Below are positions 34,996-35,183 of a stretch of DNA of 64,000 bases, piece after piece; within the stretch, counting starts at the first letter, position 1, and every line of letters starts with the position of its first letter. Source of the DNA: Escherichia coli O127:H6 str. E2348/69 (GTDB taxonomy: Bacteria > Pseudomonadota > Gammaproteobacteria > Enterobacterales > Enterobacteriaceae). The stretch lies in NCBI RefSeq assembly GCF_000026545.1, contig NC_011601.1; one strand, written 5' to 3'. Position numbers and translations under genes: made by a program. The notes beneath the pieces are model-generated. The model worked only from the letters and a program-made list of their open reading frames with translations. It was not told where the DNA came from and searched no databases.

Positions 34996-35008
34996 AGCGT
35001 TGCCGGAT

Positions 35009-35040
35009 GACGCCTCAGGCGCGTGAATGCCTGAGGCGTC
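35009..35040. terminator. long perfect palindrome downstream of osmC (terminator/REP-like hairpin)
   Basis: GACGCCTCAGGC-gcgtgaat-GCCTGAGGCGTC, 12-bp perfect stem; no strong T tract. Confidence 0.45.
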
Positions 35041-35147
35041 AGCCAATCACATCAGGCTGAGAAGGGATTGTTCTGACATGGCTATGCGTTGTCGTTGTCC
35101 AACTAAACGTAGCGGAAATCACAGTATTTAAGTGACAGTGTCACGTT

Positions 35148-35172
35148 AAATAAAAACCCGCGAGTGCGGGCG
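35148..35172 (-). terminator. rho-independent terminator of dosP
   Basis: On the minus strand CCCGCACTCGCGGG followed by TTTTTATTT, just 3' of the dosP stop. Confidence 0.55.
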
Positions 35173-35183
35173 AGAGGAATTTG

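Follow-up and report, generated by a model that had tools for sequence, protein, structure and literature searches.

Probable deletion of the ddpXABCDF operon between osmC and dosP in a lineage of Escherichia coli that includes E2348/69

Organization of the osmC-dosP interval

The window analysed here is a stretch of 64,000 nucleotides from Escherichia coli O127:H6 str. E2348/69, and positions without a locus label or accession refer to it. In this window osmC, encoding the peroxiredoxin OsmC, lies at 34564–34995 on the plus strand (stop codon 34993–34995), and dosP, encoding an oxygen-sensing c-di-GMP phosphodiesterase, lies at 35184–37583 on the minus strand (stop codon 35184–35186), according to both the open reading frame list and the RefSeq annotation of E2348/69. 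The E2348/69 match over the region is 100% identical across 1201 bases, and the RefSeq record names the same genes there. At the nucleotide level, osmC and dosP are 97.7% and 97.5% identical to their K-12 counterparts. The two genes converge on a gap of 188 bp (34996–35183). K-12 MG1655, by comparison, has the order osmC, ddpF, ddpD, ddpC, ddpB, ddpA, ddpX, dosP, in which ddpFDCBAX takes up 6.15 kb. The operon encodes DdpX, a D-Ala-D-Ala dipeptidase of the VanX type, together with its importer, DdpABCDF. A sequence-only reading of this DNA had placed osmC and dosP only about 190 bp apart with no ddp operon between them, and had named a six-gene ddp operon at this position in K-12. The coordinates and the MG1655 record bear out each of these statements, and the six K-12 genes are missing from the interval.

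No Ddp homologue was found elsewhere in the 64-kb window by tblastn, apart from an unrelated ABC ATPase with 25% identity. The same search gave no match to DdpX, the M15 (VanX-type) dipeptidase, and of the importer genes ddpABCDF a 62-bp fragment of ddpF alone is left between dosP and osmC. Alignment to K-12 divides the gap into three segments, consisting of 44 bp on the osmC side, a ddpF relic of 62–65 bp and 79 bp on the dosP side, so that K-12-like DNA and the relic account for all 188 bp. The osmC-side segment (34996–35039) matches K-12 at 41 of 44 bases (positions 5058–5101 of the K-12 locus, L001), and its K-12 counterpart stops 11 bp short of the ddpF stop codon. Next to it is the frameshifted and decayed relic (35040–35104, minus strand), whose core at 35041–35101 aligns to K-12 ddpF at L001 5543–5604. 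The dosP-side segment (35105–35183; L001 11256–11334), identical at 76 of 79 bases, is the DNA found just 3′ of the K-12 dosP stop codon and contains a terminator and an 11-nt inverted repeat. The sequence-only reading had described a palindrome with a 12-bp stem after osmC, followed directly by the dosP terminator. Both structures are real, but they do not adjoin, since the ddpF relic and about 50 bp of K-12-like DNA intervene.

Hairpins, terminator and repeats in the gap

The palindrome forms a hairpin downstream of osmC at 35005–35044 on the plus strand (inverted repeat I1), with 16-nt arms at 35005–35020 and 35029–35044 and a perfect 12-bp core at 35009–35020/35029–35040. K-12 has this hairpin too. 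Folded as RNA, the E2348/69 version reaches −30.9 kcal/mol (z = −5.3), compared with −27.8 kcal/mol for the K-12 version. A G·U pair in K-12 and GPEC1185 is a C-G pair in E2348/69 owing to changes at 35014 and 35035, which affect both arms; this is a compensatory pair by which the stem is kept and, going by the two folding energies, strengthened. The hairpin is strong but lacks the U-run of a Rho-independent terminator, is followed by AATCACATC and is absent from the output of the terminator scan. It begins with GCCGGATG, which we take to resemble the heads of REP elements. A loose pattern search of the 64-kb window gave no convincing second copy and no family, and the K-12 record has no repeat feature annotated at this hairpin.

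On the dosP side, the terminator scan identified an intrinsic-terminator-like site at 35147–35171 on the minus strand, composed of a GC-rich 6-bp stem (35171–35156) followed by the T-run TTTTTATTT. This GC-rich hairpin with its U-run has a folding energy of −10.9 kcal/mol (z = −1.8) and is kept in K-12. Just beyond it, an 11-nt inverted repeat, TTTAAGTGACA/TGTCACGTTAA (35127–35149; inverted repeat I5), has the same sequence in K-12 and may serve as a binding site for a protein or belong to a bidirectional terminator. An Rfam scan of 33600–35400 returned chance-level matches only, none of them inside the gap, and no special RNA structure was found in the relic region (z = −0.3 and −1.2).

A relic of ddpF in the gap

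The K-12 counterpart of the relic encodes the stretch of DdpF from the ABC signature to Walker B, at about residues 146–164. The relic is identical to K-12 ddpF at 49 of 62 bases, with a local alignment score of 34. Alignment of 1000 shuffled versions against both strands of the entire missing interval gave scores with a mean of 13.2, a standard deviation of 1.4 and a maximum of 19. BLAST against all loci collected by then gave E = 7e-5 to ddpF, and ddpF was the best match over other ABC ATPase paralogues. Translation on the ddpF strand reads GQRQRIAMS and then, one frame over, RTIPSQPDVI, where DdpF has GQRQRIAIA and RALSSQPDVI. The blocks of homology are colinear with K-12, running from the osmC side through the ddpF interior to the dosP side, and all are plus/plus. 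The relic is nearer to Escherichia ddpF than to that of Citrobacter or Enterobacter and retains Escherichia-type SQPDV codons, and in 28 Gb of complete E. coli genomes it matched the junction genomes described below and otherwise, weakly, ddpF alone. Because the relic scores above its shuffled versions, keeps a residual peptide match, has ddpF as its sole other match and is nearest to Escherichia ddpF, we read the gap as the scar of a deletion.

Relative to K-12, two intervals are missing. One comprises 441 bp, the 3′ third of ddpF (NC_000913.3, about 1,557,101–1,557,541), and the other 5,651 bp, from the remainder of ddpF through ddpX and 178 bp upstream (about 1,557,604–1,563,254). What survives between these intervals is a decaying 62-bp piece of ddpF. 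The lost 178 bp separate the retained dosP-side DNA from the ddpX start codon in K-12 and are where the RpoN/NtrC-dependent ddpX promoter is expected. Such a loss would have left the osmC hairpin and the dosP terminator untouched, with the result that the convergent genes end about 190 bp apart, and because both structures are retained, the osmC and dosP transcript ends are probably unchanged. Inspection of the alignments by eye revealed no convincing microhomology at either breakpoint; later substitutions blur the breakpoints.

Distribution of the junction and of ddp

A contiguous osmC-dosP junction was present in 1116 of 5426 complete E. coli genomes (about 21%). DNA from ddp was detected in 4294 (79%), in 4271 of which most of the operon was found. 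All but one of the 5411 genomes with any match belong to one set or the other (5410 in all), and the junction genomes do not carry ddp at another place. At blastn sensitivity ddpX was found in 4282 genomes and in none of those with the junction, so the whole-genome search that the sequence-only reading had put forward as a check was negative at the DNA level in the junction genomes. The relic is present in exactly the 1116 junction genomes, mostly as a 74-base version of the 73-base query, and E2348/69 and four others carry an extra 1-bp deletion. Identity of the junction to UTI89 and other junction-bearing isolates ranges from 99.0 to 99.4%.

Two further lesions of this locus, independent of each other, were noted in ddp-positive lineages. 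In strain VTB96816v, a 1.3-kb deletion has taken away most of ddpX and the 5′ portion of ddpA (L091 12386–13491). Strain STEC1587 (hits H40 and H177) has a larger deletion, by which a truncated osmC is joined to DNA that lies upstream of dosC.

Phylogroups and timing

Phylogroup labels were taken from strain names. Among the strains with the junction are E2348/69, UTI89 and one of ST1193. UTI89 and ST1193 we take to be phylogroup B2, and E2348/69 was placed there by sequence identity (100% over 1201 bases). The B2 strain Nissle 1917 appears in the set with the dosC scar described below, from which we infer that it belongs to the junction set as well. A group of about 70 junction genomes, mostly from avian strains, stands apart; APEC O2-211, MDR_56 and an APEC strain of serotype O78:H4 belong to it. 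ST117 is presumably phylogroup G, and IAI39 presumably a phylogroup F strain. The complete ddp operon is present in IAI39, with all six genes 96–97% identical to K-12. O78:H4 APEC is linked to ST117 by the title of a reference, and the avian, ST117-like junction strains are thus probably phylogroup G, which PMC8281228 describes as the sister group of B2, with a position intermediate between F and B2.

E2348/69 and the ST117-like strain GPEC1185 have identical breakpoints and 12 relic changes in common. Because the ST117-like strains, which probably represent phylogroup G, carry the same scar, the loss would predate the B2/G split. The most likely course is one deletion in the ancestor of B2 and G, before these two separated and after the split from F, and the scar would have been inherited vertically since the common ancestor of B2 and the ST117-like strains.

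The dosC scar and other nearby differences

A second reduced gene lies close by. At 37608–37818, two deletions (K-12 segments L001 13924–14453 and 14498–15186) have left only a 165-bp 3′ fragment and a 44-bp piece of dosC, the gene for the diguanylate cyclase DgcO. This dosC scar was found in 1049 of the 5426 genomes, Nissle 1917 among them, and the other 67 junction genomes do not have it. Those of the 67 that were inspected are ST117-like strains with intact dosC. Because these 67 genomes lack the dosC scar, we place the loss of dosC after that of ddp. PMC5635171 cites Povolotsky and Hengge (2016) for the frequent absence of DosC from natural E. coli isolates. The loss of dosC resembles that of ddp as a second reductive event at the same locus and differs from it in being separate and later, with 67 junction genomes spared.

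On the other side of the gap, a gene for a RelE/ParE (HigB-like) toxin (30304–30582) adjoins yddM, which encodes a HigA-like antitoxin, in E2348/69 and IAI39. K-12, GPEC1185 and VTB96816v do not have the toxin gene, and their yddM is an orphan. A stretch of the bdm-osmC spacer (34350–34470) is hypervariable and falls into two haplotype classes about 15% apart, with no indels. These classes run against phylogroup, in that E2348/69 groups with IAI39 and GPEC1185 with K-12, which suggests old recombining haplotypes upstream of osmC.

The osmC-dosP slot in outgroups and other Escherichia

In Enterobacter and Lelliottia, ddpFDCBAX comes after osmC in the same orientation, either directly adjacent or 1–3 kb away. 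Citrobacter and two cryptic Escherichia lineages show the same synteny with a 6.8-kb ato-like cluster between, and a further cryptic Escherichia lineage has the K-12 arrangement of osmC and ddp. The cluster, which occupies the osmC-ddpF interval (L003 10467–17212; L097 2450–9190; Citrobacter loci L005–L019), contains genes for a short-chain dehydrogenase, a transporter, a 3-hydroxyacyl-CoA dehydrogenase, a thiolase, the A and B subunits of a CoA-transferase and a LysR regulator; this gene content resembles that of a set for using ketone bodies or acetoacetate. In cryptic Escherichia, identity to K-12 is 88.8% for ddpF, 88.9% for ddpX, 93.9% for ddpA and 87.9% for dosP. Divergence of ddp is thus about that of dosP in these lineages, as vertical descent predicts.

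Other contents of the slot were also found. In some cryptic Escherichia, a gene for an omptin-family outer-membrane protease replaces ddp between osmC and dosP (7991–8915 in L092–L094; 5673–6617 in L004). It is intact, with 307 codons for amino acids, in the three genomes represented by L092–L094 and frameshifted in strain E69 (L004). E. fergusonii has a 46-aa omptin remnant adjoining osmC (L099 9026–9166) at a rearranged locus in which dosP abuts the cybB region. A blastn search with a word size of 7 detected no ddp relics in the omptin-type or E. fergusonii loci. None of the ddp-less Escherichia examined has the B2 junction, and the omptin-type and E. fergusonii arrangements are separate events at a variable site. 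Among the matches listed by the contig search with OsmC as query, none came from E. albertii, E. marmotae or the type strain of E. coli; searches for DosP and Bdm homologues recovered loci from E. fergusonii and cryptic Escherichia and none from E. albertii.

Divergence of the relic

Compared with the corresponding ddpF segment, which is identical in K-12 and IAI39, the relics of E2348/69 and the ST117-like strains have 11 substitutions and 1 indel in common, and the two relics differ from each other at 2 positions only. In 6.6 kb of flanking DNA, the pattern in which B2 and G agree and differ from K-12 and F, which likewise agree, occurs at 0.72% of sites. The ratio of shared to private changes is 12:2 in the relic and 48:140 in the flanks (Fisher p = 1e-5). 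Immediately beside the relic, 3 of 44 and 3 of 79 bases differ from K-12. Of the 11 substitutions, 9 are GC to AT, 7 fall on third codon positions of ddpF and 3 match alleles of the cryptic clades. No sampled ddpF allele is nearer to the relic than that of K-12; the slightly better match of the VTB96816v allele comes down to one synonymous SNP, that ddpF being otherwise of the K-12 type.

Discussion

A single deletion of an ancestral ddpXABCDF operon in the common ancestor of B2 and the ST117-like strains, after the split from F and with vertical inheritance since, is in our estimate the explanation of the 188-bp gap with a probability of about 0.92. The sequence-only reading had offered both a deletion and the ancestral state; the relic and the outgroup synteny uphold the former and speak against the latter. 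On the ancestral alternative, the short gap would be primitive, and ddp would have been inserted later on the way to K-12 and the other non-B2 phylogroups. Such an order suits the position of B2, which is often placed close to the base of E. coli. PMC11226097 also favours it, reporting the D-Ala-D-Ala dipeptidase reaction in 82% of E. coli, in 0 of E. albertii and E. fergusonii and in 2% of clades II–VIII; taken by themselves, these counts would make a gain in non-B2 E. coli look parsimonious. However, the gap holds a relic of ddpF whose strand and order are those expected, osmC and ddp are neighbours in Enterobacter, Lelliottia, Citrobacter and cryptic Escherichia, and ddp is present in phylogroup F, the branch adjacent to B2 and G. 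The ddp-less Escherichia examined have an omptin gene or a rearrangement in place of the B2 junction. Because of the relic and of this differing content, the short gap does not appear primitive, and we regard a later insertion as very improbable. An assembly or sequencing artefact, in which the operon is present in the organism and was collapsed from the assembly, is less probable still, to the point of being negligible. We found nothing in its favour, and the identical junction recurs in 1116 independently assembled complete genomes that have no ddp DNA anywhere.

The age of the scar is a more delicate matter. With 12 common changes in 62 bp against 0.72% of flanking sites, the relic has diverged from ddpF far more than the flanks would lead one to expect, which counts against a recent loss specific to B2 and G and hints at an old, divergent haplotype. 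In that event ddp would have been lost all the same, and the scar or its parent ddpF allele would be much older than the B2/G lineage. Possible routes are a deeply divergent ancestral ddp allele, an ancient ddp-less haplotype with flanks homogenised by recombination, and a scar imported from a divergent Escherichia. The ratio of shared to private changes is in keeping with such an origin, as are the third-position substitutions and the three states found in the cryptic clades. So is the bdm-osmC spacer nearby, because the 15% distance between its two classes makes deep haplotypes a local feature. Yet the comparison concerns 62 bp only, most of the substitutions are of the GC-to-AT kind that plain neutral decay of a GC-rich fragment would give, the immediate flanks are modestly diverged and the K-12 allele is still the nearest sampled. 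We therefore consider an old haplotype unlikely, while giving it distinctly more weight than a primitive gap. Should the relic nonetheless keep an ancient divergent ddp haplotype, or mark one that lacked ddp before E. coli radiated and had its flanks homogenised later by recombination, which we doubt, the osmC-dosP slot would have been polymorphic in Escherichia for a long time, occupied by ddp, by the ato-like cluster with ddp, by an omptin gene or by nothing.

Under a single deletion in the B2 and ST117-like ancestor, the locus compares with known arrangements as follows. K-12 ddpXABCDF (b1483–b1488), a VanX-type dipeptidase gene with the genes of a Dpp/Opp-type ABC importer, lies in the same slot with the same flanking intergenic sequences, whereas E2348/69 keeps only 62 decayed, frameshifted bases of it and has also lost the stretch expected to hold the NtrC/RpoN-dependent promoter. 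The cassettes of other Escherichia, namely the omptin gene and the 6.8-kb ato-like cluster with ddp, share the flanking osmC and dosP, but no omptin or ato-like sequence is found in the B2 junction. The polymorphism of the D-Ala-D-Ala dipeptidase reaction (ALAALAD) in PMC11226097 is close to ours in frequency, with 82% of E. coli there and 79% with ddp here. The passages concerned in that paper do not give the anatomy of the locus or the direction of change; the relic, the breakpoints and the distribution over B2 and ST117-like strains come from the present analysis. A literature search for an explicit statement that B2 strains are without ddp found none in main texts, and the sole related figure was the 82% in PMC11226097.

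In K-12, the ddp operon is strongly induced by nitrogen starvation via NtrC and RpoN, and the ddpX promoter depends on both (PMC8743547). It has been proposed that ddp lets starving cells use D-Ala-D-Ala (Lessard and Walsh 1999, as cited in PMC11226097). The loss would remove the D-Ala-D-Ala dipeptidase, the ABC importer and the expected promoter stretch upstream of ddpX. On this reasoning, strains with the scar, such as E2348/69, UTI89, Nissle 1917 and the ST117-like group, should not be able, as K-12 is, to scavenge D-Ala-D-Ala when starved of nitrogen or carbon.

The presence and absence of ddp is already documented in pangenome and metabolic-model data, and its loss here is ordinary lineage-specific gene loss, with no new kind of element or mechanism. 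This analysis adds the direction of the change, a deletion, together with the exact anatomy including the ddpF relic, the distribution (about 21% of genomes, in B2 and ST117-like strains) and the order relative to the loss of dosC. The practical consequences are small. The ddp scar and the later dosC deletion mark B2+G and B2, respectively, in a cleanly nested way, and together they document reductive evolution of a stress and c-di-GMP locus.
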